Positions 22,247 through 41,989 are shown, numbered from the stretch's first letter. The stretch is DNA of 64,000 nucleotides from Candidatus Woesearchaeota archaeon (GCA_016180135.1 JACPBV010000005.1:802-64801), one strand, 5' to 3'. Program-made: numbers and translations. The notes: a model not told the origin generated them from the sequence alone.

Positions 22247-22275
22247 CACCCTGGGCAGAACCCCATTGAAGCATT

Positions 22276-24465: not shown

Positions 24466-24538
24466 TAAGGGAACAGAAGTATTTGGGGGTAAGAGAGAAA
24501 AAAGCATTGCCGCAGCATAGAAGTACGGAGAATCTGAA

Positions 24539-26668: not shown

Positions 26669-29600
26669 CAGCAAAAAACAAAACAGCACAGGCGCTCTTC
26701 CTCATCACCTTAGTATTGACCCTGCCGTTCTACTCATCCCTGGCGTATGCCTCCCTGAGCAGCCCTTCCGTCAAAGGGGCAGACGGCTTTCCCGGATTTG
26801 TCCGGGGAAATGAGCAGTTTCAGATAAATGTGACAGCCTTCATTGCGCCCAATGAGGTGATAACCCCCAACCAGCTGTCAACAGTTGACGTAAACGGCCC
26901 GCCATTTGACAGCTGCCTCGACATCGGCTCCGGGAATTTCCAGTGCATCAAAGCTTTTGATGCTTCAACCCTGTCGCAAAACCCTTTCACTTTAAACATA
27001 AAGCTCTTCAGAGACGGCGGGTCGCAGGAATCAAACTTATTGGTAAACGGCATTATTGACCAGCTTCCTCCGATAATAAATACATTTGCGATAACCCCCC
27101 AAAAAACATCGTCAGGAAATATCTCGCTGCAGTGGTCTGTCACCGACGTTTCCCACTCCCCAGCTGCCCTCACCCAATGCACCGGCATCAAGAAGGTCGA
27201 ATTTTCATCATCTGAACGGGGAGTGTTCCGCTCAATACCGCTCAACAGCTTCCCGGTCTGCGGGCGGAGCAGGACAGAGAGCATTCCTGTTAGCCTCATC
27301 ACCGGAAGTGATGGGAACATCTCAGTTACCCTGAGGGTTTTTGACGGGGTAAATCTGCAGTCAGCCCAGGAGAGCACCTTCGTGTTTGACACAACTCCCC
27401 CATCCATCGTCGTTGATTCGCTGAAGATTGTTGACAATGCAGGAAATGACCTCAGCTTCCTGACAAACATTTCAGCCCTCTCCTCGATAAAGTTCAAGAT
27501 AAACGCCAATGACCTCAATGTGAGTTCCGTCTCTGCAGACATCTCTTCCCTCAGCACCGATCCCCCTGCTGATTTCAGGAAAAAGCCGGTTGGCTGCATC
27601 AGGTCTGCCTTCGATGAATTTAACTGCTCGATTGCAGGCATACCGGTGAGCATCAGCCAGTCCCTTAATGCCCAGATAATTGTCAACGCATCTGATGCTT
27701 TAGGGAATAAGCAGACAGCGCAGTTGGCAAAGCAGCTGAATTTTGACAATCTTGGCCCGGTTGTTGCCTCCATAACGACAGATTTCCGGAATGCGGCAGA
27801 TGGAAGGAGCTTCGCAGGAAAAAAGACAAATTTCTTTGTCACCCTGGCTGAAGGGGGCGTGGGCGTTGATAAAAATGATGTCAGGCTCGATTTAAGCTCT
27901 GTCAACAGCGCGCTTGCATCTGCATCGCCCGATGAATGTGTTTCTTCCGGAAATGAGATAACCTGCGTCTTTGCAAATATCACCCCAACAGCTTCTGACG
28001 GCGTCAGGCCGATCAGGGTTCTTTCCTCTTCCCGGGACAGGCTTGGGAATCCTGTATCTGGAGCTTTGGAAGAGAATATAACCATAGACACCACCCTGCC
28101 AAAGATTGAGAAGTTTTCCGCCAAAGCGCTGGCAACAGGAACCTCAACGACCTTCCCGCCGTTCCTGAAGACAGGAGATGCGTTTGCCTTTGAGGTGAAT
28201 GTGACGGAGAAAAATGATTTTACGATAAAAGCTGATTTTTCAAACATTGTGACGACAATGCAGGAGCCCGTTGCAGGACAGTGCTCAGTGGCCGCTGTGA
28301 TTTCAGGCCTTGCAGGGCTTGGTGGAAATGTTTCCGTCTGCGCATGGAACACAAACCCTATAGATGTTCAGGGCCCGATAAATTCAAACATCCTCATCAA
28401 TGTGACTGACGCTGCCGGAAACAGCAAGATTGGCTTTGCCAACTTTACCGTCCTCCAGTTTGATGATGCCGAGGTTGTCAACCACTGGACGTCAAGAGTG
28501 GAATGCTCTCCGTCGTTGGTGGACAGGCAGATAACGCCGCTGATCAACGCCAAAGTCTACTGCCAGGTAAGGCTGCAGCCCCTAAGCAATGACCAGGAAG
28601 TGCTGGACATAAAGCTGAATCCCTCCCAGTGCGAGAGCGTTGCCAAAGATTCTTTAGATTTTGTAGATCCAGAAGGGTTTGAGCTGACGAACGGCAACAG
28701 GGGAGCGACTGAGCCTTTCGTCTCTTTCCGGCTTGCAAAAGGCGAGATGGAGATTGACCGATTGGAGTTCAGATGCCCGCTGGAGATCATAACAAGAGCA
28801 GGCCAAACAATCAACAAGAACCCCGAAGTAGAGGAAGTAACGCTGCAGGCAGGGTTCTACAACAATCCTTTAGGCCAATTTGGCGATGAAGTGAAGAAAG
28901 AGATAAAGGATGCCAAGGATATTGCGAATAATATCGGGTTTAAGATTGTGGGGTATTTGAAAGAAATCGTAAAATATGCCACGATGATTTGTAATTTGAT
29001 AGCTACAGTAGAAAAATTATGGTGGGCAATCCATAGTTTTACCAAAGGGATGACCACTGCTCACCTTGCCGCTGTTGGTCCTGCAGAAGTTGCCTTGGGC
29101 CAATATGCTTACCAAGGATGTGTTCAAGATCAATTTATTCAGAAATATAATGAAAATCTCTATACGGGATTTAGTTCATTCTGCAAATATGTAAACTGCC
29201 AATACAGCCCGGCTTCCCCTCAGGATCCTTCCAAAGGGGGCCAGATTACCAGTGAAAAGACAAAAATGGGCAAGATTCATGACTTTTTCAATTCCTGGCA
29301 GACCAAAGGAAATAACTTCTTTGGCAAAATAAGCCCTGCGACAGAAACAACGACAACCATCTCCCTTTTAGGCACTAATCTTATAGGCAGAAAAGGCACC
29401 GATAGTAAATTCCGTGACTGCAAAACAATTGAGGAATGCTCAGGTAAGCAGCCAAGCCAGTATATGAATGCGAGAGACAATCTTGGAGTTGCCCTTATGA
29501 CAGGCTGCATCCCGGGAATTATTAACGGGTTGGATAATATTCGCCAATTGTTCTGCCTCAAAGCTGACTGCCTCCAGGATAATGCAAGAAACAATGTTCC

Positions 29601-29949
29601 AATAAAGGAGTGCAATGACCAGTTCTGGTATGCAACATGCAAATATATCATTGGCGAGGTATTTTCATTTTTCCCGCCGTTCGCGTTTTTTTTCAGATAT
29701 GTAGGATACATCACAGAGGCATTGAGCGACCCCATAACGGCAGTATTCACCTTGTTAAACATCTTTTTCCAGCCATGCCAGGTTGAGTGCAAGCCAGATA
29801 AAGGTGGTTCTGTTGGATGGGTGCAATGGAGTTGGTTTTGCGGGAGCCTTCAGGTAGCAACCTACATCGGTGAGATTATCAACGACGTCCAGGGAATTAT
29901 TGATACTTTCAAAGATGAAAAGATAGATTACTGCGAGAGGATTGATTGA
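26665..29949 (+). CDS. giant secreted surface protein B (Ig-like repeats, Cys-rich C-terminal region)
   Basis: A 1094-aa ORF with signal peptide 'ALFLITLVLTLPFYSSLAYA'. It aligns with the 10288 protein. Confidence 0.8.
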   Translation: MTAKNKTAQALFLITLVLTLPFYSSLAYASLSSPSVKGADGFPGFVRGNEQFQINVTAFIAPNEVITPNQLSTVDVNGPPFDSCLDIGSGNFQCIKAFDASTLSQNPFTLNIKLFRDGGSQESNLLVNGIIDQLPPIINTFAITPQKTSSGNISLQWSVTDVSHSPAALTQCTGIKKVEFSSSERGVFRSIPLNSFPVCGRSRTESIPVSLITGSDGNISVTLRVFDGVNLQSAQESTFVFDTTPPSIVVDSLKIVDNAGNDLSFLTNISALSSIKFKINANDLNVSSVSADISSLSTDPPADFRKKPVGCIRSAFDEFNCSIAGIPVSISQSLNAQIIVNASDALGNKQTAQLAKQLNFDNLGPVVASITTDFRNAADGRSFAGKKTNFFVTLAEGGVGVDKNDVRLDLSSVNSALASASPDECVSSGNEITCVFANITPTASDGVRPIRVLSSSRDRLGNPVSGALEENITIDTTLPKIEKFSAKALATGTSTTFPPFLKTGDAFAFEVNVTEKNDFTIKADFSNIVTTMQEPVAGQCSVAAVISGLAGLGGNVSVCAWNTNPIDVQGPINSNILINVTDAAGNSKIGFANFTVLQFDDAEVVNHWTSRVECSPSLVDRQITPLINAKVYCQVRLQPLSNDQEVLDIKLNPSQCESVAKDSLDFVDPEGFELTNGNRGATEPFVSFRLAKGEMEIDRLEFRCPLEIITRAGQTINKNPEVEEVTLQAGFYNNPLGQFGDEVKKEIKDAKDIANNIGFKIVGYLKEIVKYATMICNLIATVEKLWWAIHSFTKGMTTAHLAAVGPAEVALGQYAYQGCVQDQFIQKYNENLYTGFSSFCKYVNCQYSPASPQDPSKGGQITSEKTKMGKIHDFFNSWQTKGNNFFGKISPATETTTTISLLGTNLIGRKGTDSKFRDCKTIEECSGKQPSQYMNARDNLGVALMTGCIPGIINGLDNIRQLFCLKADCLQDNARNNVPIKECNDQFWYATCKYIIGEVFSFFPPFAFFFRYVGYITEALSDPITAVFTLLNIFFQPCQVECKPDKGGSVGWVQWSWFCGSLQVATYIGEIINDVQGIIDTFKDEKIDYCERID

Positions 29950-30988
29950 AATGGTTAAATCAGCCAAATCAGTAAAGCTCCCAGGAATCGCAGCAGTGTC
30001 AGCAGGGATTCTCAACGAAATAAAAGGAATTATCTCGAATGCCCGCCATCGGGCGTTCAATGCATTGAACCGGGAAATGCTTACTGCTTATTTCGAAGTT
30101 GGCAGGAAGATATTTGAAGAAGAGCAGAAAGGGGAGAAAAGAGCAGGGTATGGTGAAAAGCTTATTGAAAACTTGTCTGTGGAATTGATTAAAGAGTTTG
30201 GAAAAGGATTTAGTATAACTGCTTTGAAGAATATGAGGATGTTCTTTACTGTTTATAAAGATAAGATTGGTCAGCCAGTGACTGACGAATTCTTCAGGCT
30301 GTCATGGACCCATTATTGTGAACTAATCAAGATTAAAGATGAGATAAAGAGGGGATATTTTGAAAAATACGCCATATCTGAAAACTTAAGCGTAAGGGCC
30401 TTAAAAAGGCAGATGTATTCTCTCCATTATGAAAGGCTGTTGATGAGTAAAGATAAAAAAGCTTTGATAAAGTATGAAAAAAGAGGGAATATCCCTGCAA
30501 CAACAGAGGAGCTTATCAAAGACCCTTATGTCCTTGAATTTCTTGATCTAGGCGAGAAAAAAGCTTATACTGAAAAAGATATTGAGGCCAGGATATTGGA
30601 TGACTTGCAAAAGTTTTTGCTGGAACTGGGGCAGGGATTCAGTTTTGTTGCGAGGCAAAAGAGGTTTACCATTGACAACGATCATTTTTACATTGATTTG
30701 CTTTTTTATAATATTTATTTAAAATGCTATGTGGTGATTGAGTTAAAAGTCGGCAAATTTAGGCATGAGGATGCAGGGCAGATGAACTTTTACCTAAATT
30801 ATGTCAAAGAAGAGTTGAATAAAGAAAAGGATAATGATCCTGTCGGCATAATACTATGCACTGAAAAAGACAAAGTGCAGGTAGAATTTGCATTATCCGG
30901 CATCTCCAATAAGCTCTACGTTTCAAAATATAAATTATACCTTCCGAGCAGGGAAGAATTAGAGAAGGAAATAAAGAGGCTGCTTTAA
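29942..30988 (+). CDS. DUF1016 / YhcG-family PDDEXK nuclease domain protein, copy 1
   Basis: Contains 'IDLLFYNIYLKCYVVIELKVGKFRHEDAGQMNFYLNYV', the typical YhcG core. It overlaps the stop of the upstream giant gene by 8 nt. Confidence 0.8.
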   Translation: MIEMVKSAKSVKLPGIAAVSAGILNEIKGIISNARHRAFNALNREMLTAYFEVGRKIFEEEQKGEKRAGYGEKLIENLSVELIKEFGKGFSITALKNMRMFFTVYKDKIGQPVTDEFFRLSWTHYCELIKIKDEIKRGYFEKYAISENLSVRALKRQMYSLHYERLLMSKDKKALIKYEKRGNIPATTEELIKDPYVLEFLDLGEKKAYTEKDIEARILDDLQKFLLELGQGFSFVARQKRFTIDNDHFYIDLLFYNIYLKCYVVIELKVGKFRHEDAGQMNFYLNYVKEELNKEKDNDPVGIILCTEKDKVQVEFALSGISNKLYVSKYKLYLPSREELEKEIKRLL

Positions 30989-31037
30989 CATGCCCCGCCG
31001 CACAAAAGGCCACAGGCATACCCCAGGCATGCAGAAC

Positions 31038-31220
31038 ATGAAAACAAACAAATCAGCCAGGATTTCAGGAATCGTAATATTGTTTGCAGTTATAAGCCTG
31101 TTTGTGTTTGCCTTCTTCACAGCCCAGCTCCCGGAAGGCATGAAGCCGCTGGTTGAGGTCAGCATGAACGGTCCTGAGTCGGTGACGGGAGCGGCGGTTG
31201 GGGTGACGGGGATAAAATGA
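31038..31220 (+). pseudogene. 5' fragment copy of the 32536 surface gene (signal-anchor segment only), or a small expressed membrane peptide
   Basis: 'MKTNKSARISGIVILFAVISLFVFAFFTAQLPEGMKPLVEVSMNGPESVTGAAVGVTG' parallels residues 1-69 of the 32536 protein. It ends in an ATGA overlap with the next gene. Confidence 0.5.
31050..31212 (+). repeat. direct repeat copy 1 of the 5' coding segment of gene D
   Basis: Aligns with 32557-32719 without gaps, at about 88 percent identity by eye. Confidence 0.8.
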
Positions 31221-32539
31221 ATAAAAAGACATTCAAAGAAACAGAACTCCTGGAATTAAAAAAATCAACCTCTGAGTTAAAGGAAGCTATAATCTCCATG
31301 GCCTCTATCTTAAACAAGCATCAGAAAGGAGAAATCTACTTTGGCATAAAGAATAACGGCGAAATTGCAGGCCAGGATATCTCAGGAAAAACAATAAGAG
31401 AAGTGTCTAAATCTGTTTCGGATAATATTGAGCCTAAAATTTATCCTAAAATCAAAGATGTCTTAATTGATGGCAGGAAATGCGTGCATGTTGAATTTAA
31501 TGGCAATGATATCCCTTACTATGCATTCGGGAGGGCCTACATGAGAGTGGGTGATGAGGACAAGAAAGTAAGCGCCAAAGAATTGGAGAAAATGATTGTA
31601 GAAAAAAATAAAGATGAGTTAGCATGGGACAAAGCAGTATGCAAAGGCGCAAAAACAAGTGATATAAGCCTGCAAAAACTGAAAGTATTCCTCAAACAGG
31701 CAGCCTTGAAATTTGATTCCGCAGAAAATTCGCTTAAGAAGCTTAACCTGATAAAGGGCAGCAGCCTTATCAATTCGGCGCTGATACTATTCGCAAAAAA
31801 TCCTGAGAAATTTTTCCCAAATGCAAAATTGCGATGTGCCGTTTTTGGCACAGACGATGCCTCTTTTATCATTGATATGCAGGAATTTGAAGGTGATTTG
31901 TTCTATCTGATTGAAAAGGCGCAGGAGTACATACTTAAAAATATACACATAGGTATGAGGATTGATGGATTGTACAGGGTTGATGTTCCGGAGATAGACA
32001 AAGAAGCATTTAGGGAGGCAATAGTTAACGCTTTTTGCCATAGGGATTACCACAACTATGACTCCGTAAATATTGCAATATTCAGGGGCAGGATGGAGAT
32101 AAGGAGCCCGGGGTTATTGTATGGGGGGCTTACCATAGAAAAGATCATATCAGGAGCCGTTTCTGAGAGGCGGAATGAAATAATCGCAGAAATGTTTCAT
32201 AAAGTCCATTTTGTCGAAAAGTGGGGAAGGGGGATTAATTTGATTCTTTCCAAGGAGCCGGATGCTGATTTTAAGGAATCAGGCAGGCATTTCGTTGTAG
32301 TTTTCAAGAGGAAAGAAAAAAGCTACGAAGTGAAAAGTTCGGAGAAGAGTTCGGAGAAAAGTTCGGTGAAGATTTTAGAGTTGATAAGGGAAAATCAGAG
32401 TATAACCGTCCGGGAAATTGCAAAAGAATTGAACATAACTGCAAGGGCAGTGGAAAAGAGCATCTCAAAATTAAAGCTAAAAGGCTTGCTTAAAAGAATC
32501 GGCCCGGACAAAGGGGGGCGCTGGGAGATCATCAAATGA
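31217..32539 (+). CDS. COG2865-type protein (AlbA_2/Schlafen-like DNA-binding domain + HATPase_c_4-like domain + winged HTH)
   Basis: Contains 'ETELLELKKS', 'GEIYFGIKNNGEIAG', 'NAFCHRDY', 'EIRSPGLL' and 'VEKWGRGINLI'. The C-terminal HTH is 'SITVREIAKELNITARAVEKSISKLK'. Confidence 0.8.
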   Translation: MNKKTFKETELLELKKSTSELKEAIISMASILNKHQKGEIYFGIKNNGEIAGQDISGKTIREVSKSVSDNIEPKIYPKIKDVLIDGRKCVHVEFNGNDIPYYAFGRAYMRVGDEDKKVSAKELEKMIVEKNKDELAWDKAVCKGAKTSDISLQKLKVFLKQAALKFDSAENSLKKLNLIKGSSLINSALILFAKNPEKFFPNAKLRCAVFGTDDASFIIDMQEFEGDLFYLIEKAQEYILKNIHIGMRIDGLYRVDVPEIDKEAFREAIVNAFCHRDYHNYDSVNIAIFRGRMEIRSPGLLYGGLTIEKIISGAVSERRNEIIAEMFHKVHFVEKWGRGINLILSKEPDADFKESGRHFVVVFKRKEKSYEVKSSEKSSEKSSVKILELIRENQSITVREIAKELNITARAVEKSISKLKLKGLLKRIGPDKGGRWEIIK

Positions 32540-35500
32540 AAAAGCTCAACAATTTCAAATCAGCAAAGATGTCAGGAATCGCAATAGTGTTTGCAGTGAT
32601 AAGCCTGTTTGTGTTTGCCTTCTTTACCGCACAGCTCCCGGAAGGGATGAAGCCGCTGGTTAAGGTTAGCATGAACGGGCCTGAGTCAGTGACTGGGGCA
32701 GTGGTTGGAGTCACGGGGATGGCAGTAGAAACTTATACTCTTCCTACAAAAGAGGGGGTGGGTAAAAGTAAAGATATTGCACCTGGCAAGTATTACATTG
32801 AAAGCAAAGGCAGTATAGGTGAAACCAAACCTGCTCAGGTTCTCTTTGATTATACAGGCACCTTAACCCCCGGCACCTACACAGTTGTGCAGCGAAGCTC
32901 GGATGGAAGGGAATTTACAGCAAAAGATATTAAAGTTGAAGATGGAAATAAAATCACCGTTATTAGGACAGGTAGAGGAGATTGGGTAGAGGGGGGAGAT
33001 GGGTCATCAACATACAAATCGAGCACTATAATGCTCGATAAGAAGGGTAAAGTAACAACAGATCCGGTTTTAATGGTTAGCCTTCTCCAAATCCCGGAAA
33101 GTATAGGGCCAAAAACAAACAAAGAGATAACAGAAAATAATCCCCAAATATTAACCTCAAAAGAAGATTTTTCCAGCCGCAATGCGGTTTATTTTAAAGA
33201 TGATGGCAATAAAATAGATGCCCCCACTAATAGTGGGACAAGTAAGGGTACTTATTACGGAACCAGCATATTCAAGTTTGATGGGCAAGATTACTATGTG
33301 ACAACAAAATATGAGGATGGTGAGGATAACAACAAAGCAGTGAGATATATTAGCGAAAACCCCCCTTCTCCAGCAACTGGATGGGGAACAGAGATAAAAG
33401 GATATGATGCCAAGACAGGCATCGGTAGATTAGATTCCAATGTTGGCAGTTTGAAAAAAGGGAAAGTTGATGTTTCTTGGCGGGGCTTTGACAACGGTGT
33501 GCCAACTAAATTTTCAAATATAAATTCCAACACAATGCAGTCTAACAATAATGGATTATACCTTAGTAGTAAGGAAGGCAGCCTATGGAGCGCAAATCAG
33601 CCATCAAATCCAGAATCGGGGGATATTTCTTACGGAACTTCCATTTATACTAAAGATGGACAAGAGTATTATGTTACTCAGAAGTATAAGTATGTAGTTA
33701 GTGGAAAAAGTGAAAGTTGGGAAGCCGTCAAAGATGAGGTTTACCTTGCAAAAACACCTCCAAACAATAAGGATGAAATAGAAAAAGGCGCGAGAGGAAC
33801 AATCGAAGGCAACAATATCAAGATTACCGCCGCAGGTGAAGGATTAAAGGTTGGTGATGACTTTGATGTAAGGCCTCAAAATTCTAAATATGGTGCAACA
33901 GAAAAAGAGGAAGATGCTCTTAGGCGTGAGTTTAAAGGTACTAATGAGGAATTTGCAGCGATGCTATCTTCCCTCGAAAGTTCGACTGCAATAGGCGCAA
34001 CATCAACTTCTTCCGCCGCATCAAGTTCTGCAGGGACCAAAGAAGTAAGAAGACCAATCTTCTTCAGGGGAAAATGGTTTGTTTTTGACTTTTCAGGTAA
34101 AAAGCCCATAGAGTTTCCTGATGACGAGGAAGCCAAAAATTATGCCGCAAAGATTAACAAAGCTATAGAACGAGGACTTAAACCCTCAGAATTCACCTCC
34201 GATAAAGAGGGAAAAAATGATTTATTTGCAAGTTCTTCAGGAACGCTTCTTTCTTACGACGACTCGAAAAAAGATTTCTCTAATCCCCCCGCTGGTACGG
34301 AATTTTGGAAAAAGGAAACACTTGGGGCAAACCTCGAGGTAAACGTAAGGCACGCCAATGTTGGCGGCGCACCATCTGGCGAAATTTATGGCGCCATTGG
34401 TAAGTTTAATATTGATATTCCAGCGCTCCAAAGCATCAAAAAGAACGTTAAACCGGGAACTACCGTTACCTTTGATAAAAATACAAAAACTTTTTCATTC
34501 ATTAATCCAAAAGAACAATCTGTGCAGGAAATATTTTCTGCCAGTTATAATGTTGAACCTGATACTGCCCACCCCAATACGCCGCCAAAAGTTACAGGAA
34601 CTAGGACTCAAACAACCACAGTAGATTATTACTTTGACCAATATGGGAGCCAAATAACCCGTGCAGCACATATCAAATTGGCCTATGAAGGTAATCCTGG
34701 CCAGGAAATTAAAGTGCCCGAATCAAACATTTTTTCGAGGAACGAAATATTCAAGGGAATTACGGTTTTAAACAATCTAGATATTAAACAGCAACGGACT
34801 GAGTTTGTTTTTACTCCCGAAAGTGATGGAACGCAAACCATCTCTGGATTCAAAACAACGTCATTTGCGTATGACTCCAATAAGGGAACTTTAGCAGGAA
34901 TAGTGCTTTCTACAGGGGAATTAAATAATCAAGTTCAGGAAACGGTGGTTTATGATATGGAAAAAGGAACTGTTACGAAAACAAAGGAACGGGGTATTGA
35001 ATCTGTCTATCTTGTGCCTACGCCTACCGAGGATATTAATAGTCTTAATGGTCTCGAAGAAGAAGCTGCACGGGTCGGCAACCGTGAGCACAACCGTAAA
35101 GCTTTTGCAGATTGGGAACTTAAGCTCACCCAATACCGGGGCTTATCTGGGTTTTCTCAGCTTTTCTTCGATGATGAAACTCTTGCAAAATGGCGTGAAA
35201 ATGTAGATAAATACTTTGCCAAATATTTAGGCCAAGACTATTTTGAATCTTATATCTGCTCACTCGCAATAGACAAAGAATCCGGACCTGGCACACTCTC
35301 GATGGAAACCCCAAATGGATTATATGACATCATCGCCCACATCGAAGGCACAAGGTCAGAGCCAATAAATCGCCCAGACGGCACAACAGAATTCGTCTAC
35401 AAATTCACCTACAATATCAGGAATCCAGAAGGCTCGCCCCATAAGAACTTATTATTCAACATTGCGCTCTACAGCGCTCAGGGAAAGAGATACCTTTACC

Positions 35501-35799
35501 CAAGATCCCTCGCTGTAAAAGAAGGGAAGCATTTCATCAGGGGCTTAGTCCTTAATGAAGCCAATGCAGACAAAGACTTTGAAAGAGGCCCTGTCGTCAA
35601 AGTCTCCCAAAACTTATACGGAAAGCTCTGCATCGAATTCGGCCAAACAATAACCAACGCTGAAGGGGACGAAGAATCGCAGGTCTGCAACACTATTACT
35701 GCATTTACCGGAACAGGAACTGAGTTTGAGGAGCGCACATCGGAAGAAGCCAAGCAAACACCTCAGGGCCCGAAGGACTTCAGCGAGGGGGAGATATGA
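32536..35799 (+). CDS. large membrane-anchored surface protein D
   Basis: A 1087-aa ORF with an N-terminal signal anchor. It has repeated 'YGTSI(F/Y)..DGQ(D/E)YYVT' segments. Its C-terminal region, with 'YFESYICSL', is related to the other giant proteins. Confidence 0.8.
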   Translation: MKKLNNFKSAKMSGIAIVFAVISLFVFAFFTAQLPEGMKPLVKVSMNGPESVTGAVVGVTGMAVETYTLPTKEGVGKSKDIAPGKYYIESKGSIGETKPAQVLFDYTGTLTPGTYTVVQRSSDGREFTAKDIKVEDGNKITVIRTGRGDWVEGGDGSSTYKSSTIMLDKKGKVTTDPVLMVSLLQIPESIGPKTNKEITENNPQILTSKEDFSSRNAVYFKDDGNKIDAPTNSGTSKGTYYGTSIFKFDGQDYYVTTKYEDGEDNNKAVRYISENPPSPATGWGTEIKGYDAKTGIGRLDSNVGSLKKGKVDVSWRGFDNGVPTKFSNINSNTMQSNNNGLYLSSKEGSLWSANQPSNPESGDISYGTSIYTKDGQEYYVTQKYKYVVSGKSESWEAVKDEVYLAKTPPNNKDEIEKGARGTIEGNNIKITAAGEGLKVGDDFDVRPQNSKYGATEKEEDALRREFKGTNEEFAAMLSSLESSTAIGATSTSSAASSSAGTKEVRRPIFFRGKWFVFDFSGKKPIEFPDDEEAKNYAAKINKAIERGLKPSEFTSDKEGKNDLFASSSGTLLSYDDSKKDFSNPPAGTEFWKKETLGANLEVNVRHANVGGAPSGEIYGAIGKFNIDIPALQSIKKNVKPGTTVTFDKNTKTFSFINPKEQSVQEIFSASYNVEPDTAHPNTPPKVTGTRTQTTTVDYYFDQYGSQITRAAHIKLAYEGNPGQEIKVPESNIFSRNEIFKGITVLNNLDIKQQRTEFVFTPESDGTQTISGFKTTSFAYDSNKGTLAGIVLSTGELNNQVQETVVYDMEKGTVTKTKERGIESVYLVPTPTEDINSLNGLEEEAARVGNREHNRKAFADWELKLTQYRGLSGFSQLFFDDETLAKWRENVDKYFAKYLGQDYFESYICSLAIDKESGPGTLSMETPNGLYDIIAHIEGTRSEPINRPDGTTEFVYKFTYNIRNPEGSPHKNLLFNIALYSAQGKRYLYPRSLAVKEGKHFIRGLVLNEANADKDFERGPVVKVSQNLYGKLCIEFGQTITNAEGDEESQVCNTITAFTGTGTEFEERTSEEAKQTPQGPKDFSEGEI
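32557..32719 (+). repeat. direct repeat copy 2 (inside intact gene D)
   Basis: Aligns with 31050-31212. Confidence 0.8.
35329..35799 (+). repeat. direct repeat copy 1 of the 3' coding segment of gene D
   Basis: Aligns with 36906-37469, except for the 93-nt insertion in copy 2. Confidence 0.85.
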
Positions 35800-36794
35800 A
35801 AAAAGAGATTGAAAGCCAACGAAGTGAATTAATTAATAAAATCTCAGAAATTGTCAAGAGAGCCAAAGATGAATTAGCTAAAACGATAAATACAAAGATG
35901 GTCGCTGCTTATTGGGCCATCGGCAGATATATTGTTGAGCATGAGCAAACGGGCAAAGAAAGAGCTGAATATGGCTCTGAACTTATGAGTGCCTTATCGA
36001 AAGAGCTTTCCTTAAGGTTTGGAAGAGGATTTTCCCGTTCAAATCTTCAGAATATGCGGCTTTTGTATTTGGCATATCCAAAAAGCCAGACACTGTCTGG
36101 CAAATTGAGCTGGAGCCATTATTGCCTGTTGATTTCTCTTGAAGAAAGGGCAAAAAGAGATTTTTATGAAAAAGAAACCCTGCAAAACAATTACTCATTC
36201 AGGGAGCTCAAAAGGCAGATAAGCTCAGCATTATATGAGCGGCTGGCATTGAGCAGGGATAAACATGGGGTTTTGCAGCTGTCCAAAAAAGGCAATGTTA
36301 TCACGAGTGCTGAAGATATGATAAAAGATCCATACGTGCTTGAATTTCTAGGGCTGCCGGAGTCTGAGAAGCTTTCTGAAAAGGGGTTAGAGGGATCTAT
36401 AATAAAGCACTTAAGGGATTTTCTCCTTGAGCTTGGCAGAGGATTTGGCTTTTTTGGCAGGCAGTATCGGATCACCATGAACAATGAGCACCATTATGTC
36501 GACCTCGTGTTCTACCATGTTGAATTAAAGTGCTTCGTATTAATTGACTTGAAAGTGAGAGAATTCAGGCATGAAGACGCCGGGCAGATGAATTTCTACC
36601 TCAATTATTTTAGGAATGAGGTAAACAGCAGGGATGATAACCAGCCAATCGGAATCATTTTATGCCTTGAAAAGAATAAAGTTTATGTTGATTATGTATT
36701 GGGCGGATTAAGCAATAAAATATTCGCATCCAAATACCAGCTGAAGCTGCCGACACCAAAAGAGCTTGCAGAAGAGGTCAAAAAGGAAATGTAG
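35796..36794 (+). CDS. DUF1016 / YhcG-family PDDEXK nuclease domain protein, copy 2
   Basis: Contains 'VDLVFYHVELKCFVLIDLKVREFRHEDAGQMNFYLNYF'. By eye it is roughly 45 percent identical to copy 1. An ATGA overlap links it to the stop of gene D. Confidence 0.8.
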   Translation: MKKEIESQRSELINKISEIVKRAKDELAKTINTKMVAAYWAIGRYIVEHEQTGKERAEYGSELMSALSKELSLRFGRGFSRSNLQNMRLLYLAYPKSQTLSGKLSWSHYCLLISLEERAKRDFYEKETLQNNYSFRELKRQISSALYERLALSRDKHGVLQLSKKGNVITSAEDMIKDPYVLEFLGLPESEKLSEKGLEGSIIKHLRDFLLELGRGFGFFGRQYRITMNNEHHYVDLVFYHVELKCFVLIDLKVREFRHEDAGQMNFYLNYFRNEVNSRDDNQPIGIILCLEKNKVYVDYVLGGLSNKIFASKYQLKLPTPKELAEEVKKEM

Positions 36795-36905
36795 TATACC
36801 CGATAACCAAGAAAAATCAATTAATAGATTAATGGAAAAAAAATGCGCCATAAAACACTGAAGTCGGGACAAAAAACCATGGCAACCCACAACACTCCCT
36901 TCCCC

Positions 36906-37469
36906 ATCATCGCCCACATCGAAGGCACGCGCTCAGAGCCAATAAGACGCCCCGACGGAACCACCGAATTCGTTTACAAATTCACCTACAATATCAGGAA
37001 TCCGGAAGGCTCGCCTCATAAGGACTTATTATTCAACATTGCGCTCTACAGCGCTCAGGGAAAGAGATATAGCAAAAGACGCAAATATTCAGATAATAAT
37101 GCCCGTCTTTTGCTTATTAATAACGGACAACTATGGTTAAATAATTATTGTCCGTTATTATACCTCTACCCAAGATCCCTCGGTGTAAAAGAAGGGAAGC
37201 ATTTCATCAGGGGATTAGTCCTTAATGAAGCCAATGCAGACAAAGACTTTGAAAGAGGCCCTGTCGTCAAAGTTTCCCAAAACTTATACAGCAAGCTCTG
37301 CATCGAATTCGGCCAAACAATAACCAACGCTGAGGGAGACGAAGAATCGCAGGTCTGCAACACTATTACTGCATTTACCGGAACAGGAACCGAGTTTGAA
37401 GAGCGCACATCGGAAGAAGCCAAGCAAACACCCCAGGGCCCGAAGGACTTAAACGAGGGGGAGATTTAG
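36906..37469 (+). repeat. direct repeat copy 2 (orphan)
   Basis: Aligns with 35329-35799. Confidence 0.85.
37070..37162 (+). other. 93-nt in-frame insertion made of two hairpins
   Basis: Absent from copy 1. It contains 'gcaaaagacg...cgtcttttgc' and 'taataacggacaa...ttgtccgttatta', and 'ata' occurs at both junctions. Confidence 0.55.
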
Positions 37470-37470
37470 G

Positions 37471-37959
37471 ATGGAAGTCAAAAAGGCCGGAGAGAAATCC
37501 AAGAGAAAAATCCTTATTGACTTGGACGTGATAACCGTCGCCTTGTGGAACAAGAAAAAAGAGATTGTTTCATTTATTGAAAGGGTAAAAGAAGGTGAAT
37601 TTGAGGTTTACACCCCCTATAGCCTCATGGATTTGGTTGAGCAATGGAGAGATGCAAGATTAAGAAACAATATCAAAGAGTTCTATGCCCTTTACTCAAC
37701 GGAGATTGTTTCGCTCCAGCGCTTGAAGAATCTCATTGAAGAGAGAGCTATCAATGAAACCGCTTTAATTGAGGTTTTAAAAACAAAGGAGATTAAGGAA
37801 GAAGATATTCTTTTGGTTGTCGTTACCGCCCTGATGAATCTCGATTTCTTAGTAACCCTTAACAGGAAGCACTTAAAAAACAAGGAGGAGGTCATAAATG
37901 CCATACTATCCAATCATGGGCTTAAAAAAGTTAAGATTATCTCGCCAGAAGAGGTTTAG
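37471..37959 (+). CDS. PIN-like domain protein (weak)
   Basis: 'ILIDLDVITVAL' near the N-terminus and 'LDFLVTLNRKHL' near the C-terminus resemble PIN acidic blocks. The start lies 1 nt after the upstream stop. Confidence 0.45.
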   Translation: MEVKKAGEKSKRKILIDLDVITVALWNKKKEIVSFIERVKEGEFEVYTPYSLMDLVEQWRDARLRNNIKEFYALYSTEIVSLQRLKNLIEERAINETALIEVLKTKEIKEEDILLVVVTALMNLDFLVTLNRKHLKNKEEVINAILSNHGLKKVKIISPEEV

Positions 37960-38393
37960 TTTTCCTCAGTTTAGCGAGGTCGGAAAGGAACTTATCAGTA
38001 AGCCCTTTTTTTATTTCATCAGCCAGAGCAATAGGGTCAACATCCGCAGGAATAATGGGTTTCAGCTTCATAAAAAGAAAGGAGAGAAGGGATTATTTAA
38101 ATCTTCCGCTAAAACAATGCGCCTTAGTAATGACGCCAGCTCAGAGCCCATCCAAAGGCCGGACGGAATGGACACGCTCAAAAGAGATCATGCCGCATCA
38201 TGGCAAAAGCAGGGCAGGATGACCGCATGCAAAAGCACCCCCACTGCCTCCAAAGAGCAGGATGGGATGGCCGCATACAAAAGTATCACCGGCAGCCGTC
38301 AAAGGCCGGACAGAATGGATGCATCCAATTTCCACCCCGCCGCCAGTCAGGATGAGGAGAAAATGTTTGCATTGAATGGGGCTATAGCATAGC

Positions 38394-39212
38394 ATGAAAC
38401 CGATCAAAACAATAAAAAGAAAAAGCTCCTGGGGTGAAGCTCTCGGAGAATATTTCCGGGATCACGGAAAAGCCGCTTTCAAAGCAGCAAAAGCCTCGAT
38501 GAACACCCGCACCCTGATGGCGGCAGGATACGCCGCAATATTATTCTCAGCCACGCTCCTTGCATTCTTTTTTGCGAAGCTTGCCCTGGTTCCAAAACTG
38601 GAAGCGCTTGACTCGATCAGCCTTGACCGCATCCAGGAAAAGGCAGAGGGTGAATTGGCGGAGATTGCCGGAATAGCGAAAGGATTCATCGCAGCCCTTA
38701 TAGCAGTCGTTATAGCAGCATCAGCGCTCTGGGCTCTGCTCTTTGGCCTAATCGAGGGAAGCCTCATCAGAGGATTTACCGGCTCGGATGTTCCCCTGAA
38801 AAGATATGCCCTCCTTGGGCTTGTTTGGGCCCCCGCCTGGCTGGCCATATTCTTCCTCCTCATTTTTGGGGGCAGGTCGGAAACACTCCTCACAGGATTG
38901 ATCATGCTGGCGCTGGCCTTCATCCACTTCAGCACGACAGTCTTTTGCCGCTTTTCGGCAACGAACAGGTTAAGGGCAATAAGGGAAGGCCTTGCCGAAG
39001 GAATAAGGCTTCACCATTATCTCCTGCCCTACATTTCCCTATACTTTATATACCGCCTCGGCAAATATCTCTTTGATTGGGCATTAATCCTGAGCAAAGC
39101 TCAGCCAGGGATTGTCCTGCTTGGGACCGGAATGGTTTTGATGCTGCTGTTCATCGGATTTGCGCAGGCATTCCAGATCAACACTCTCCTGCAGGCCAAA
39201 CAAGCCAGATAG
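38394..39212 (+). CDS. polytopic membrane protein, paralog of 16646 and 58865
   Basis: It has five or more hydrophobic helices and the shared 'LRAIREGLAEGIRLHHYL' block. It lies directly upstream of the prepilin-like gene of module C. Confidence 0.6.
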   Translation: MKPIKTIKRKSSWGEALGEYFRDHGKAAFKAAKASMNTRTLMAAGYAAILFSATLLAFFFAKLALVPKLEALDSISLDRIQEKAEGELAEIAGIAKGFIAALIAVVIAASALWALLFGLIEGSLIRGFTGSDVPLKRYALLGLVWAPAWLAIFFLLIFGGRSETLLTGLIMLALAFIHFSTTVFCRFSATNRLRAIREGLAEGIRLHHYLLPYISLYFIYRLGKYLFDWALILSKAQPGIVLLGTGMVLMLLFIGFAQAFQINTLLQAKQAR

Positions 39213-39345
39213 TCAGGCAAAGAAGCAGAATAGGGAAAGTTGGGACCAATCAAGCCCCTCAGGCCAAACAAGGTTGGCAAACAGGCAAACAAGCGGAATA
39301 GGGAAAGTTGGGACCAATCAAGCCCCTCAGGCCAAACAAGCCTGA
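39192..39345 (+). repeat. tandem repeat with a 68-nt period (about 2.3 units), including two perfect 45-nt copies
   Basis: 'gaatagggaaagttgggaccaatcaagcccctcaggccaaacaag' occurs at 39228-39272 and 39296-39340. 'caggccaaacaag' also occurs at 39192, inside the end of the upstream gene. Confidence 0.8.
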
Positions 39346-39397
39346 CAAGCAGGACAGATAGGTTATTGGCAGGAAACATTGCCCGGAAACATCTACC

Positions 39398-41500
39398 ATG
39401 AAAAAAAGAGGGCAGATAACGGTTTTTATAGTGATAGGCTTATTGATACTCTTCACCTTCTACCTCCTCTCACGTGAAAAAAGAGAATCTATCGAAGATA
39501 CAGAGATTATTCAGCCGGAACTGATCCCTGTCCAGCAGTTCGTGGAAAGCTGCTCGAAAGAGCTCGCAAAGGAAGCCCTGTTCCTCATCGGCGCAAACGG
39601 CGGCTATATCTATTTCCCCGAATGGATCGACCGGGTTCCGGGAAGATCGCTCCAGAACTCTCCCAACAGGGATATCAGGAATCCGCTGTGGTGGTTCGAC
39701 GGAACGCTTGCAATTCCGCCGCTGGCCCAGATCGAGCAGGACATGGCAAGGTTCATCCAGGACAGGATGCCACGCTGCCTGAACAACTTCTCGGCATTCA
39801 ACAGGACTTATGCAATCGAGGAGCTCGGAGACTTAAAAACTGCAGTCATCCTCGGAGATGACCAGCGGCTGAAAGATGATGTCACTGTCAGAACCCAATA
39901 TCCTATAAAAGTCAAAGACAGGTTCAACACCACGCTCGCAGAGCTCCAGAAATTTGTTATTACACTTCCTATACGGTTCCAGCGCACCTACAATCTTGCA
40001 AAGCTTATCATGGAGAGGGAAAAGAAAGACTTTTTCATCGAGGAAAAGGCCATTGACCTCATCAACATGGACCCAAAGACCCCGACAACAGGGTTTGAGT
40101 TCACCTGCAAGAAAAAAATCTGGCAGACAGCTCAGGTAGAAGACCGGATAAAGAAGCTCCTTGAAGTGAACCTAAACCATCTCAAGGTCAAAGGCACAAA
40201 GTTCGACCCTGATGCTATCCTGCCCTACCTCGGCGATACTGTCCCTGATTTCCGTGGGAAGCTCACCGCCCAGCAGATCAAAGAAGCCTCTCAGGCCGGC
40301 AGCCCTTCAGCCACACGGGACAATGAAAAAGATTTCTCCTACCTGAACAAAGCGCTTTCTGACACGTATAAGGATTCATATTATTACGCCCATTATGTCT
40401 GGGACCTCGCAAGGGATCCCGAGCCATACCGGAACTTCAGGACAAATTTCCAGTTCGACAGGTCATGGCCGTTTTTGCTGAAAGCCAGCCCGTCGAAAGG
40501 CCCCATCATGGAGACTAATGCGATGAAGGGCTCCAAATTCCTCTCGGCATTCTGCCTCCACACATGGCATTTCACCTACAGCATGGAATTCCCGGTAAAA
40601 GTGACGCTCGTCGATGAAAAGGCAGAAAAGAACGATGGATACACCTTCAGTTTTGCATTCCAGGCAAAACTCACCAAGAACTACCCCGACCCTACTGCGC
40701 AGGATTTCACAACCATGCTCAGGCGTGATATCTACACTTCAGATGAATACTGCGCTGACATCACTGCAGAAAACCCGGTGATGGTGCTTATCGCCAGAGA
40801 CCTCATCACCGATGAGGATATCAGCAAAGTGAATATGACCTTCACCTGCGGCAGATACGCCTGCGATATCGGCCAGACAAAGCCGGACTTCACCAATAGA
40901 GGAGCGCCTTCATTGAAGAAGCAGCTTCCTCAGTGCACCAACGGAATCCTCAGAGGCTCAAAGGCAAACTATGAAGATGCCCAGCGATTCATCAACACCG
41001 AGATAGAGCGCATCTACACTCTGCCGATGCAGCCGGTAAAATATTTCAATATTTCAGTCAGAAAGCACATGCTCAAAGATATAGGGGACAGCGGCTCCGG
41101 GATTGACTTTGCCGGAGAGCGCCTGCTCGGGAACGGCGAGGAAGCGTTAGTCATGGTGAGATATCCCCCGAAAAAGTTTGAGTCCTTTGCAATATACGAT
41201 AGGTTTCCCGTCAGCCTTGATGACCCGATACAATCCTCATTGAAGCTCCTCGCCAAAGAAGACATAGAATATGAAGTAGAGGTTTACCTTTCCAGCAACA
41301 AGACCATCACCGGCGGCTATATTGCCAACTGGACAGCGTCAAAAGACCAGATAAAGCTCGGTGAAAACATCACCTTCCACATCGCAGAGCAGCCCCATAA
41401 GGTCGGCGAGGAGTTCAAAGAAAGCGACGACATCGCAATTTTGTTTTTCGGGGCATTGCCTGCAATATCAGAGAAGCTCCCGCCGCCTGAGATAAAGTAG
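39398..41500 (+). CDS. large protein with a class III (prepilin-like) signal peptide, module C
   Basis: The N-terminus is 'MKKRGQITVFIVIGLLILFTF'. Conserved blocks are 'IPVQQFVESC', 'GGYIYFP' and 'FTYSMEFPVKVTLVD'. Confidence 0.8.
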   Translation: MKKRGQITVFIVIGLLILFTFYLLSREKRESIEDTEIIQPELIPVQQFVESCSKELAKEALFLIGANGGYIYFPEWIDRVPGRSLQNSPNRDIRNPLWWFDGTLAIPPLAQIEQDMARFIQDRMPRCLNNFSAFNRTYAIEELGDLKTAVILGDDQRLKDDVTVRTQYPIKVKDRFNTTLAELQKFVITLPIRFQRTYNLAKLIMEREKKDFFIEEKAIDLINMDPKTPTTGFEFTCKKKIWQTAQVEDRIKKLLEVNLNHLKVKGTKFDPDAILPYLGDTVPDFRGKLTAQQIKEASQAGSPSATRDNEKDFSYLNKALSDTYKDSYYYAHYVWDLARDPEPYRNFRTNFQFDRSWPFLLKASPSKGPIMETNAMKGSKFLSAFCLHTWHFTYSMEFPVKVTLVDEKAEKNDGYTFSFAFQAKLTKNYPDPTAQDFTTMLRRDIYTSDEYCADITAENPVMVLIARDLITDEDISKVNMTFTCGRYACDIGQTKPDFTNRGAPSLKKQLPQCTNGILRGSKANYEDAQRFINTEIERIYTLPMQPVKYFNISVRKHMLKDIGDSGSGIDFAGERLLGNGEEALVMVRYPPKKFESFAIYDRFPVSLDDPIQSSLKLLAKEDIEYEVEVYLSSNKTITGGYIANWTASKDQIKLGENITFHIAEQPHKVGEEFKESDDIAILFFGALPAISEKLPPPEIK

Positions 41501-41680
41501 GCCTGGAGATGCAATAAGTCAGAAGATAGGATAGGAGATATGGGAAGTTAGGAGATAAAAAGTATAGGAAAAAAAATAAAGCAGTATTGAAACGGCTAAT
41601 AGAGGTTATGCGCAAAGTAATCAGTTGCAGGAGTTAGGAAAAACCAATCAAGAAAGAGCAGCTGAAATAATCTGCAAAAG

Positions 41681-41796
41681 AAAATCCCAACAACAAAGGG
41701 CTCGACGGTCAAAATTCCTTTCAGGAATTTTGCCCTGCTCGGGGGTTTCCGAAGGAACAACCCTCCCCCTCGCCTCGCCGATGTTGTTGGGATTTT
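41681..41796 (-). repeat. palindromic structured repeat element E4a (inverted relative to E2/E5)
   Basis: Closing stem is 'aaaatcccaacaaca'/'tgttgttgggatttt'. The interior is near-identical to E5 apart from compensatory stem changes. Confidence 0.6.
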
Positions 41797-41816
41797 CGAG
41801 GGAGAGGATGTTCATC

Positions 41817-41931
41817 GAAAAAATCCAGCCATGGCGGAGACGGGACGGGGGTCGCCCCCTCGGGGTGTCTCGTAGGGCATTTTGCCAAAAGCAAAATGAC
41901 CGTCTCCCGCCTTGGCTGGCTGGATTTTTTC
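41817..41931 (+). repeat. palindromic structured repeat element E4b (divergent member)
   Basis: The 15-bp closing stem is 'gaaaaaatccagcca'/'tggctggattttttc', with a second stem 'ggcggagacgg'/'ccgtctcccgcc'. It shares 'gccccctcggggtg' and 'gggc[hairpin]tgaccgtc' with the other copies. Confidence 0.55.
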
Positions 41932-41972
41932 ATGCTGGACGGAGCATACAACAAACTTCAAGAAACCCCATC

Positions 41973-41980
41973 TTTAAATA
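41973..41980 (+). promoter_or_regulatory. archaeal TATA box candidate for giant gene C, implying a ~85-105 nt repeat-containing leader
   Basis: TTTAAATA lies just after element E4b. The next long ORF starts at 42093/42111. Confidence 0.4.
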
Positions 41981-41989
41981 TCCCAATAA

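Follow-up and report, generated by a model that had tools for sequence, protein, structure and literature searches.

Defence-type genes and duplicated gene ends at both borders of a surface-protein gene in a Woesearchaeota archaeon: a probable record of successive recombination events

Organization of the locus

The window, that is, the whole 64,000-nucleotide stretch of DNA that was analyzed, derives from Candidatus Woesearchaeota archaeon, a tiny groundwater archaeon. It carries a gene, designated D, within an operon whose order A-B-D-E-A2-B2 is conserved between this locus and related DPANN archaea. The features from B to E are as follows.

26665-29949, plus strand: gene B (ORF), conserved upstream neighbour of D
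29951-30009, plus strand: D0, apparently the oldest 5' stump of D, ATG and about 19 codons, fused in frame to Y1
29942/29951-30988, plus strand: Y1, first DUF1016/YhcG gene (Pfam YhcG_C 1.5e-60, DUF1016_N 1.4e-39; PADLOC PDC-S02)
30990/31030-31220, plus strand: ORF of D1, second 5' stump of D; D-homologous part 31049-31213
31217-32539, plus strand: COG2865-type gene, Schlafen/AlbA_2, HATPase_c_4 and winged HTH, GC 0.395
32536-35799, plus strand: intact D (ORF), N-terminal membrane anchor, variable middle, conserved C-terminal Ig-like domain
35796-36794, plus strand: Y2, second DUF1016/YhcG gene (Pfam); its ATG overlaps the stop codon of D
36795-36905, plus strand: Y2-associated spacer, 111 nt; its right end is a non-homologous joint to an apparently old D allele
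36906-37469 (ORF 36843-37469), plus strand: 3' stump of D, equivalent to D 35329-35799, codon 932 to stop
37070-37162, plus strand: in-frame insertion in the 3' stump, 93 nt, two perfect hairpins
37471-37959, plus strand: PIN-like gene, starting 1 nt past the stop codon of the stump
37937-38071, minus strand: convergent ORF, 44 aa, conserved beside the PIN-like gene
38072-38393, no strand: DNA between the PIN-like module and E, assigned to no gene
38394-39212, plus strand: gene E, conserved downstream neighbour of D

ORF coordinates confirmed the gene order of the original prediction (B, Y1, D 5' fragment, COG2865 gene, D, Y2, D 3' fragment, PIN-like gene), and Pfam matches bore out its identification of the YhcG-type and COG2865 genes. 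The ATGA overlaps that it described were all present, at 31217-31220, 32536-32539, and 35796-35799; the COG2865 gene has ATGA at both ends and Y2 at its left end, and the 1-nt gap between genes at 37469/37471 was likewise found. The predicted 8-nt overlap at 29942-29949 holds with a TTG start for Y1, but two gene callers take the ATG at 29951, where D0 begins, 1 nt past the stop codon of B.

D is a hypervariable surface-protein gene. Its C-terminal Ig-like domain (approximately aa 840-1087) is common to 274 proteins, and the AF2 model of this domain is a beta-sandwich. An HMM of the domain matched intact D over its full length and also matched the 3' stump; it gave no signal on 38072-38393, near the left edge of which, at 38069, a Logan contig from another sample begins. 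The GC content of the flanking genes A, B, E, A2, and B2 was 0.48-0.51, and that of the genes lodged beside D (the cargo) was lower, 0.37-0.40. No integrase or transposase Pfam match was found among the window ORFs of at least 150 aa.

Nucleases and other cargo genes

Y1 and Y2 matched YhcG_C at approximately 1e-59 to 1e-60 and DUF1016_N at approximately 1e-40 to 1e-44, with scores of 204 and 136 bits for Y1 and 198 and 150 bits for Y2 (cut-offs about 33 bits), and both matched the PADLOC candidate PDC-S02. These profile matches indicate that both are members of the YhcG/DUF1016 family. The predicted catalytic D...(D/E)XK core, assigned by its resemblance to the usual motif of PD-(D/E)XK enzymes, is intact in Y1 (...YIDLLFY...VVIELKVG) and in Y2 (...YVDLVFY...VLIDLKVR). 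Y1 and Y2 are not copies of each other, since they share only 47% identity, and would represent two nucleases of independent origin.

The native portion of Y1 begins at approximately 30008. Compared with homologues of 80% identity, whose N-termini are unrelated, Y1 has lost its first 14-15 own codons and carries 19 D-derived codons instead. Such a fusion appears to be the signature of illegitimate recombination within two ORFs. The 80%-identity homologues of Y1 lie in Type I R-M loci, and homologues of Y2 with 70-75% identity are spread across DPANN and CPR.

The COG2865 gene retains all three of its domains, namely the AlbA_2 N-domain (PF04326, 1e-14), HATPase_c_4 (PF13749, 3e-18), and the C-terminal winged HTH (PF13412, 2.6e-8). 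The label "PIN-like" of the original prediction stands as a motif-level resemblance (ILIDLDV...; EDxxLVxxA...LVTxNRKHL) but gained no support from sequence databases: the protein had no match in Pfam, NCBIfam, or PADLOC, and a PDB profile search was empty. Its AF2 single-sequence model had a pLDDT of 41, too low for use. In another locus, L027, an inserted ORF at the 5' end of a D-family gene shares 42% identity with the protein, and the adjoining 44-aa ORF, where Logan also calls a gene, is about 50% identical to the L027 equivalent. The two probably constitute a two-gene module. A Pfam search revealed no methyltransferase among the cargo.

Remnants of D and their divergence

Both duplicated ends of D noted in the original prediction were recovered. 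D1 (31049-31213) is 88% identical to D 32556-32720, a repeat of 165 nt; its homology stops after D codon 61, and the TGA of its ORF overlaps the ATG of the COG2865 gene. The Logan gene call treats D1 as a 76-aa gene. The 3' stump (36906-37469) is 92-96% identical to D 35329-35799, a repeat of 471 nt that covers the last 157 codons, and its protein differs from D at 6 of 157 residues. Upstream of 36906, identity to D is at background or nearly so, and the 111-nt spacer that occupies this position came in together with Y2. A third 5' copy, D0, had been overlooked; it matches D 32556-32600 at 36 of 45 bases in the same frame, the runner-up among 128,000 positions having 27. The three 5' copies of D are 69-88% identical to one another, and their end points differ (codon 19-20 in D0, codon 61 in D1).

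The differences between the repeats are mainly synonymous: 14 synonymous versus 6 non-synonymous in the 5' repeat (D1 vs D; dN/dS 0.11, dS 0.46) and 18.5 versus 8.5 in the 3' repeat (stump vs D; dN/dS 0.11, dS 0.21). Full neutrality of this divergence was rejected (P = 6e-12), as was neutral in-place decay of one repeat copy (omega 0.55). The dN/dS of 0.11 suggests that the stumps are remnants of older, formerly functional D alleles, and the unequal dS values point to different donors or times.

Comparison with other loci

Related genomes were compared for empty and occupied sites, as the original prediction had proposed. L016 has the order A-B-D-E-A2-B2 at 36-41% aa identity and is free of cargo and fragments; L028 and L032 are also empty. 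These empty syntenic loci share about 40% protein identity with the window, too diverged for base-by-base DNA alignment. D directly adjoins E in L016, L024, L028/29, and L032, and B homologues lie immediately 5' of D in L016, L028, L031, L032, and L034. Since D abuts B and E in several of these relatives, the genes that separate them in the window (Y1, Y2, the COG2865 gene, and the PIN-like module) are insertions.

The D-E junction is a recurrent site of cargo, with VapBC, MazEF, HicBA, or other genes in 6 of 10 loci; none was seen at A-B junctions of the loci compared. Serial D-end copies around cargo were found in two other genomes. L007 has three D 3'-end copies (repeats of 164 nt at 98.8% and 49 nt at 92%) around DUF5678 with Asp-protease and DUF433 cargo, followed by VapBC. 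A third DUF1016 gene lies in L007 directly upstream of a D-family gene and shares 73% identity with Y2. L027 has three D 5'-end copies around two PIN-like modules. In L010, one DUF1016 gene is nested in a second one, within the 5' end of the latter, and is accompanied by a duplication of 46 nt (97.8%); the same contig holds a paralogous single-copy site, the only same-contig paralogous empty site.

At 70-81% identity, homologues of the cargo turn up elsewhere in DPANN/CPR and in different gene surroundings. No donor locus with a Y1-D, COG2865-D, or D-Y2 adjacency was found, and the closest relatives of Y1 sit in R-M operons.

Proposed origin of the locus

We consider it probable that the locus is a record of successive recombination events at both ends of D. 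The sequences fit at least three or four separate imports from diverged strains, with differing cargo and break points. In each event, the foreign DNA would have comprised a selfish gene of defence or addiction type (Y1; the COG2865 gene; Y2; the PIN-like gene with its 44-aa partner) and, next to it, one end of a diverged D allele. One side may have recombined through D homology and the other joined illegitimately inside resident D; this would be homology-facilitated illegitimate recombination, to which Campbell-type integration of a circle bearing a D end is equivalent. The incoming end would restore an intact D and push the resident end outward as a stump. The 5' side would have yielded first D0, the 19 codons now fused to Y1, and later D1, with 61 codons; the 3' side would have yielded the last 157 codons. 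On the assumption that selection favoured survivors with a co-oriented, translationally coupled operon (ATGA or 1-nt gaps) and an intact D, the tight junctions would follow. The cargo would be expressed from the operon and kept because it is addictive or protective.

The original prediction had offered, as separate readings, disruption of a resident D allele by a cassette with its own copy of D and insertion of selfish genes with long target duplication; both come near to the origin favoured here. Insertion is upheld by the empty syntenic loci, and the stumps appear to have once been functional, but a single cassette does not account for three or four events or more.

Microhomology at the illegitimate joints is 2-3 nt and ambiguous. 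Random illegitimate joints would seldom hug start and stop codons as the cargo borders do, an observation that speaks against recombination of this kind.

Alternative explanations

An unlikely alternative is in-place insertion with long target duplication, in which the cargo alone entered D and 45-470 nt of the resident end were doubled by a process linked to staggered breaks or to replication, so that both repeat copies stem from one resident allele. Direct repeats of >30 bp around cargo without a mobility gene, the definition used for R-M systems (PMC2853133), are seen here, and the cargo is "ORF-only" with minimal flanks. The near-identical repeats of L007 (164 nt) and L010 (46 nt) fit this process as well as they fit recombination. 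However, the mainly synonymous differences reject in-place decay in the window (P = 8e-7), the 5' copies differ in identity and end point, and the 5' repeat has a two-fold higher dS than the 3' repeat. Moreover, since Y1 lost its own N-terminus, the cargo is not a defined unit.

It is conceivable, but a long shot, that the locus is a cassette array that works without an integrase and uses the D-end repeats as homologous "attachment sites". If so, ordinary homologous recombination could excise the cargo bounded by these repeats, pass it between DPANN strains, and stack it, and the cargo nucleases (DUF1016/YhcG) might stimulate such exchange. The ends of a surface gene would then be an integron-like exchange point for defence genes in archaea without known mobile-element machinery.

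Spread driven by the nucleases themselves is very unlikely. DUF1016/YhcG, and perhaps the PIN-like protein, would putatively cut cargo-free D alleles in the manner of free-standing homing endonucleases, and break repair would copy the nuclease gene and flanking D into the cut allele. The two unrelated DUF1016 genes exactly at the D borders, with their predicted D...(E/D)LK motifs intact, the third such gene in L007, and the nested pair in L010 are in line with this, as is the enrichment of DUF1016 beside recombining specificity genes (PMC9881135). Against it, most D-flank cargo elsewhere belongs to families other than DUF1016 (VapBC, MazEF, HicBA, and further genes), the close homologues of Y1 and Y2 lie mostly in R-M or toxin-antitoxin islands away from D, and clean homing would leave neither truncated stumps nor an N-terminally fused nuclease.

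We give even less credence to the idea that D-end fragments persist because they serve a function, either as a reserve from which gene conversion alters D (antigenic variation) or as "att" sites of such an array. Serial arrays with a nearly constant break point in L027 and L007 favour it, as do the contig ends that fall on cargo borders, at 30003 and 38069. The orphan-cassette store of the original prediction nevertheless found no support, as the fragments are conserved D ends with little diversity (6 of 157 residues in the 3' copy), and the two 5' stumps of the window break at different codons, 19-20 and 61. In other samples, Logan contigs have D-type patches within the 3' stump, but every switch falls at a k=31 bubble boundary, and these mosaics can be explained by assembler bubble popping. 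Polymorphic-toxin orphan modules (Rhs/CDI) were rejected as an identification: the 3' fragment has 96% protein identity to D's own Ig-like C-terminal domain, and nuclease and PIN-like genes follow.

An assembly artefact joining strain variants, also raised in the original prediction, is hardly credible. In its favour, the sequence comes from a MAG built from short reads, the 3' repeats share exact runs of up to 59 nt, and 35476-35733 is spanned by no Logan contig. Against it, every novel junction (B-D0-Y1, Y1-D1, D1-COG2865, COG2865-D, D-Y2, spacer-stump) lies within independent k=31 Logan contigs, among them L018 (13,281 nt) and L017 (1,321 nt), that match the window at 100% identity; the longest exact run common to the 5' repeats is 26 nt, shorter than k; and a mis-join could not make a truncated D with a unique spacer.

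Relation to known systems

The proposed successive recombination at the ends of D would belong to a process that is already known, and this locus documents it unusually clearly. Its nearest known counterparts are insertion with long target duplication and terminal displacement in Rhs and T6SS loci. The former was reportedly described for restriction-modification gene complexes by Nobusato and colleagues in 2000. The likeness lies in selfish nuclease-type genes without an integrase or transposase, direct repeats that copy the target (tens to hundreds of bp), and repeats that could permit amplification or excision. In contrast, the cargo here consists of solitary YhcG nucleases, COG2865, and toxin-antitoxin-like genes, not R and M pairs, the host is a DPANN archaeon, and the repeats are ends of one coding gene that diverge allelically under purifying selection. 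Furuta, Abe & Kobayashi (2010; PMC2853133) screened for inserts of <20 kb with direct repeats of >30 bp, no linked mobility gene, a repeat present once at the empty site, R and M genes, and repeats that duplicate one target; no archaeal case passed. The locus falls within the limits on size, repeats (165 nt and 471 nt), and mobility genes (no integrase/transposase match), but its YhcG, COG2865, and PIN-like cargo lacks the R and M genes, and the divergence between copies (dN/dS 0.11, dS 0.21-0.46) departs from duplication of one target.

Kirchberger et al. (2017; PMC5361080) described T6SS effector-immunity modules displaced sequentially by homology-facilitated illegitimate recombination, and C-terminal displacement in Rhs/CDI loci is attributed there to Jackson et al. 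(2009). As in these systems, homology would be anchored in the conserved portion of a large gene for a surface or secreted protein, the other end would be joined illegitimately, old gene-end remnants would be pushed outward, and repeats of the event would build arrays. The locus has the mark of displacement, a truncated resident remnant beside an apparently incoming module that restores an intact gene, and the lower GC of the cargo and its homologues in other DPANN/CPR lineages point to foreign origin. It differs in that the displaced ends are conserved and near-identical to the active copy rather than variable toxin tips, immunity genes are absent, displacement occurred at the 5' and 3' ends alike, and the cargo consists of defence/addiction genes unrelated to D's own function.

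The cargo also resembles accessory genes of Type I R-M operons, in which the DUF1016 (PDC-S02) and COG2865 families, among others, ride between the hsd genes, co-oriented and tightly packed, and, as in defence hotspots between conserved core genes, the same families lie inside a host operon. Unlike R-M accessories, they occupy a cell-surface protein operon rather than a defence operon, and insertion scars, the target-end stumps, are kept.

The 93-nt in-frame insertion in the 3' stump is single-copy within the window and had no Rfam match; its two hairpins give a DNA fold of -22.1 kcal/mol (z = -8.2).

Genes surrounding D

The order, coordinates and junctions of the genes described in the original prediction, including three ATGA overlaps, were all present in the sequence around D, the variable surface-protein gene of the conserved DPANN operon A-B-D-E-A2-B2.

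Genes at the D locus (window positions)
26665-29949, B, ORF
29951-30988, DUF1016/YhcG nuclease gene #1 (Y1), ORF; Pfam YhcG_C and DUF1016_N
ending at 31220, D 5' fragment ORF
31217-32539, COG2865-type gene; Pfam AlbA_2, HATPase_c_4 and wHTH
32536-35799, intact D (NCBI HYU14_00865, Candidatus Woesearchaeota MAG)
35796-36794, DUF1016/YhcG nuclease gene #2 (Y2); Pfam YhcG_C and DUF1016_N
36843-37469, D 3' fragment ORF
37471-37959, PIN-like ORF

The predicted 8-nt overlap at 29942 holds only with a TTG start; gene callers take the ATG at 29951, 1 nt past the B stop. The native A/B pair is likewise joined by an ATGA overlap. Pfam agreed with the DUF1016 nuclease and COG2865 labels. Y1 and Y2 were also matched by the PADLOC candidate defence family PDC-S02, and share only 47% identity. 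The PIN-like label found no support in Pfam, PADLOC or PDB profile searches, and the quality of the AF2 model was too poor for use. The 3' end of this gene is overlapped by a convergent ORF of ~44 aa (37937-38071, minus strand; both genes together, 37471-38071), which is conserved with ~50% identity in the unrelated metagenome contig L027 (942-1530). The two genes resemble a toxin-antitoxin-like module of a kind not yet described. Window ORFs of at least 150 aa yielded neither integrase nor transposase domains, and an Rfam scan of 29000-39500 gave no match.

Insertion of cargo genes into a conserved operon

An exhaustive HMMER search revealed that only the C-terminal ~240 residues of D are conserved; D had no close relatives among 5.8 billion proteins. 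The C-terminal domain ends 274 proteins of widely differing length, and its AlphaFold model is an Ig-like beta-sandwich, for which a fold search returned only generic Ig-like PDB matches (E > 1e-3). Related loci were fetched via this domain, and a scan of genome contigs with a four-sequence alignment yielded one locus.

The comparison with related loci uncovered empty sites. L016, a locus in a GTDB genome of Ca. Nanoarchaeia, carries A-B-D-E-A2-B2 with 36-41% protein identity to the window; there B adjoins D and D adjoins E, with neither DUF1016, COG2865 and PIN-like genes nor fragments of D. The D-E junction was likewise empty in the metagenomic loci L024, L028/29 and L032. Because these junctions are empty, the conserved cell-surface operon must have acquired Y1, the COG2865 gene, Y2 and the PIN-like module by insertion. 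The GC content of these cargo genes was 0.37-0.40, compared with 0.48-0.51 for A, B, E, A2 and B2.

A 130-aa ORF past B in another locus, L007, was considered as a D 5' fragment and proved to be a separate conserved gene, here called C. In one operon subfamily, B and D are separated by gene C, which encodes a membrane-anchored protein of ~130 aa (L007, 659-1051; L031, 7819-8220; L032, 6106-6576; L034, 6193-6585). An N-terminal motif is common to C and D, and C may be an ancient D 5' duplicate turned gene.

Comparison with independent assemblies

The original prediction had left room for an assembly artefact from strain variants. We compared the window with independent Logan assemblies (k=31) of public runs. 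One contig of 13,281 nt was 100% identical to 22196-35476 and carried B, the fused Y1 gene, the 5' stump D1, the COG2865 gene and D together; another of 1,321 nt was 100% identical to 35733-37053, running across the D stop, through Y2 and the spacer, and into the 3' stump. The longest exact run common to the copies was at most 26 bases for the 5' repeats and at most 59 for the 3' repeats. Together these results dispose of the artefact, and mis-joined strain variants cannot produce a truncated D with a unique spacer joint. Across 35476-35733, the pairing of the 3' copies with Y2 and with the PIN-like gene is known from the original assembly alone.

Among Logan contigs from other samples (L043 and L044), ends fell at 30003, within 6 nt of the joint between Y1 and its D-derived start, and at 38069, where a contig begins exactly on the edge of the PIN-like module. 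These ends hint at haplotypes with differing cargo content, or at mere coverage loss. Three contigs (L019, L020 and L022) with D-type patches in the 3' stump were rejected as proof of gene conversion or of polymorphism of a 93-nt insert; all switches between D-type and stump-type sequence sit at k=31 bubble boundaries, so the patches are explicable by bubble popping.

Origin of the D copies

The 5' repeat (31049-31213 and 32556-32720) showed 88% identity and the 3' repeat (36906-37469 and 35329-35799) 92-96%. The D 5' end occurs a third time, in an older copy, D0, that makes up the first 19 codons of Y1 (29951-30009): 36 of 45 bases match D in frame, and the runner-up among 128,000 positions matches 27. 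In close homologues of Y1 (80% identity), 14-15 N-terminal residues are unrelated to those of Y1, which has D-derived codons at that position. D0 and Y1 were fused in frame by an illegitimate joint, from a break inside both ORFs.

Differences between the repeat copies fell mostly at synonymous sites: 14 synonymous and 6 non-synonymous in the 5' repeat (dS 0.46, dN/dS 0.11), and 18.5 and 8.5 in the 3' repeat (dS 0.21, dN/dS 0.11). Duplication of the target in place, followed by decay of the stumps, predicts a pooled ratio of ~0.55. This model fits near-identical repeats of two other loci, L007 and L010, equally well, but it was rejected for the window repeats (P = 8e-7), as was neutrality (P = 6e-12). 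The stumps therefore diverged mostly as pieces of working D genes in other lineages. The unequal dS at the 5' and 3' repeats points to different donors or times. An origin of the stumps from tandem paralogues was discarded, as tandem D genes occurred in no surveyed locus. A candidate third, degenerate D 3' remnant past the PIN-like gene (a 30-nt match at 38139-38168) was also discarded, the D C-terminal HMM being negative in 37960-38393.

The 3' stump contains a 93-nt in-frame insertion (37070-37162) consisting of two perfect hairpins with stems of 11 and 12 bp (DNA fold z = -8.2). The insertion occurs once in the window, has no Rfam match and may be a tiny MITE-like element. In L010, two paralogous DUF1016 genes are each split within the DUF1016_N coding sequence (TYW|IGKQI) by a ~52-nt double-hairpin insert of similar architecture (7073-7125 and 12147-12199).

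Recurrence in other loci

A homologue of Y2 with 73% identity led to the syntenic locus L007, where a DUF1016 gene lies directly upstream of a D-family gene; downstream, three D 3'-end copies (repeats of 164 nt at 98.8% and 49 nt at 92%) bracket DUF5678 plus Asp-protease and DUF433 cargo, followed by VapBC. In L027, two PIN-like modules are bracketed by three D 5'-end copies; one of the PIN-like genes is 42% identical to that of the window and has the same convergent ~44-aa partner. L010 carries a DUF1016 gene within the 5' end of another, with a 46-nt duplication comprising the RBS and 11 codons, a repeat present once at a paralogous site elsewhere on this contig.

The D-E junction holds cargo in 6 of 10 distinct loci (Y2 with the PIN-like module, the L007 array, VapBC twice, MazEF and HicBA), and no such cargo was seen at the A-B junctions in those loci. 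Around VapBC, MazEF and HicBA in L025, L026, L031 and L034, no D-end repeats rose above shuffled background. In related genomes, toxin-antitoxin and nuclease genes land repeatedly at the D flanks.

L025 (2654-3310) and L032 (10700-10720) form a closely related occupied/empty pair with 80% identical E proteins. A 635-nt VapBC unit lies precisely between the D stop and E start of L025, with flanks of ~13 nt; an 11-nt duplication of the E start is doubtful.

Proposed mechanism and relation to known systems

The locus is most likely explained by successive imports, in each of which a cargo gene arrived attached to the neighbouring end of a diverged D allele. A crossover in D homology, combined with an illegitimate joint inside the resident D, would yield a complete D that is foreign in part and push the resident end outwards as a stump; repeated rounds would give D0, D1 and the 3' stump. 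The pathway would be homology-facilitated illegitimate recombination; Campbell-type integration of a repeat-excised circle would amount to the same. Microhomology at the joints was minimal, and no donor arrangement was found. The cargo borders fall on start and stop codons with greater precision than would be expected of random joints; the ATGA overlaps and 1-nt gaps may be survivors of selection in an operon that is compact and translationally coupled.

"Insertion with long target duplication" has been described for R-M gene complexes (PMC2853133), with R+M cargo required, repeats taken as target duplicates and archaeal cases not reported. The overall pattern is alike, but the window cargo is not R+M and its repeats are not target duplicates. 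Mechanistically nearest are the sequential displacement of T6SS effector-immunity modules and Rhs C-terminal displacement, both attributed to homology-facilitated illegitimate recombination (PMC5361080). The window departs from those systems in that its displaced ends are conserved, displacement affects the 5' as well as the 3' end of the gene, and defence or addiction genes take the place of immunity genes as cargo. The feature is genuine and recurs in other loci; integrase-free recombination of a known class most likely accounts for it. New here are the archaeal host, the solitary YhcG, COG2865 and toxin-antitoxin cargo, insertion at either end of a single surface gene, and repeats that are allelic in origin.

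Few mobile elements can be recognised in the tiny genomes of DPANN archaea, so how these archaea gain defence genes is poorly known. This locus keeps the scars of several integrase-free acquisitions at a single gene. It extends long target duplication and terminal displacement, described for R-M and toxin loci of bacteria, to archaea and to YhcG and COG2865 genes that stand alone. DUF1016 genes are known to ride along in R-M operons and on mobile elements, and relatives of Y1 are located in Type I R-M operons; we found no description of how DUF1016 moves. Judging from the junctions, in-frame fusion and ATGA coupling may allow promoter-less cargo to borrow the host gene's expression signals.

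Other features of the contig

Further genes of defence or toxin-antitoxin flavour lie within 69-2172 and 9105-9590 (an AAA_14/DUF4143 ATPase, an NTP_transf_2 nucleotidyltransferase and a Pfam-supported PIN gene). Three paralogous clusters (10288-20453, 24539-29949 and 39398-48650) encode large proteins without Pfam domains, with pilin-like N-termini in the A-type and cysteine-rich C-termini in the B-type; the A-B-D-E-A2-B2 order is kept across DPANN metagenomes. The A2-B2 gap of 593 nt (41501-42092) contains no convincing gene; in L016, L024 and L028 the two genes either overlap or are separated by 18-34 nt. Between E and A2, 68-nt tandem repeats (39192-39362, copies 87% identical) occupy the position of a conserved ~51-aa gene in other genomes, and three Logan contigs stop within them.
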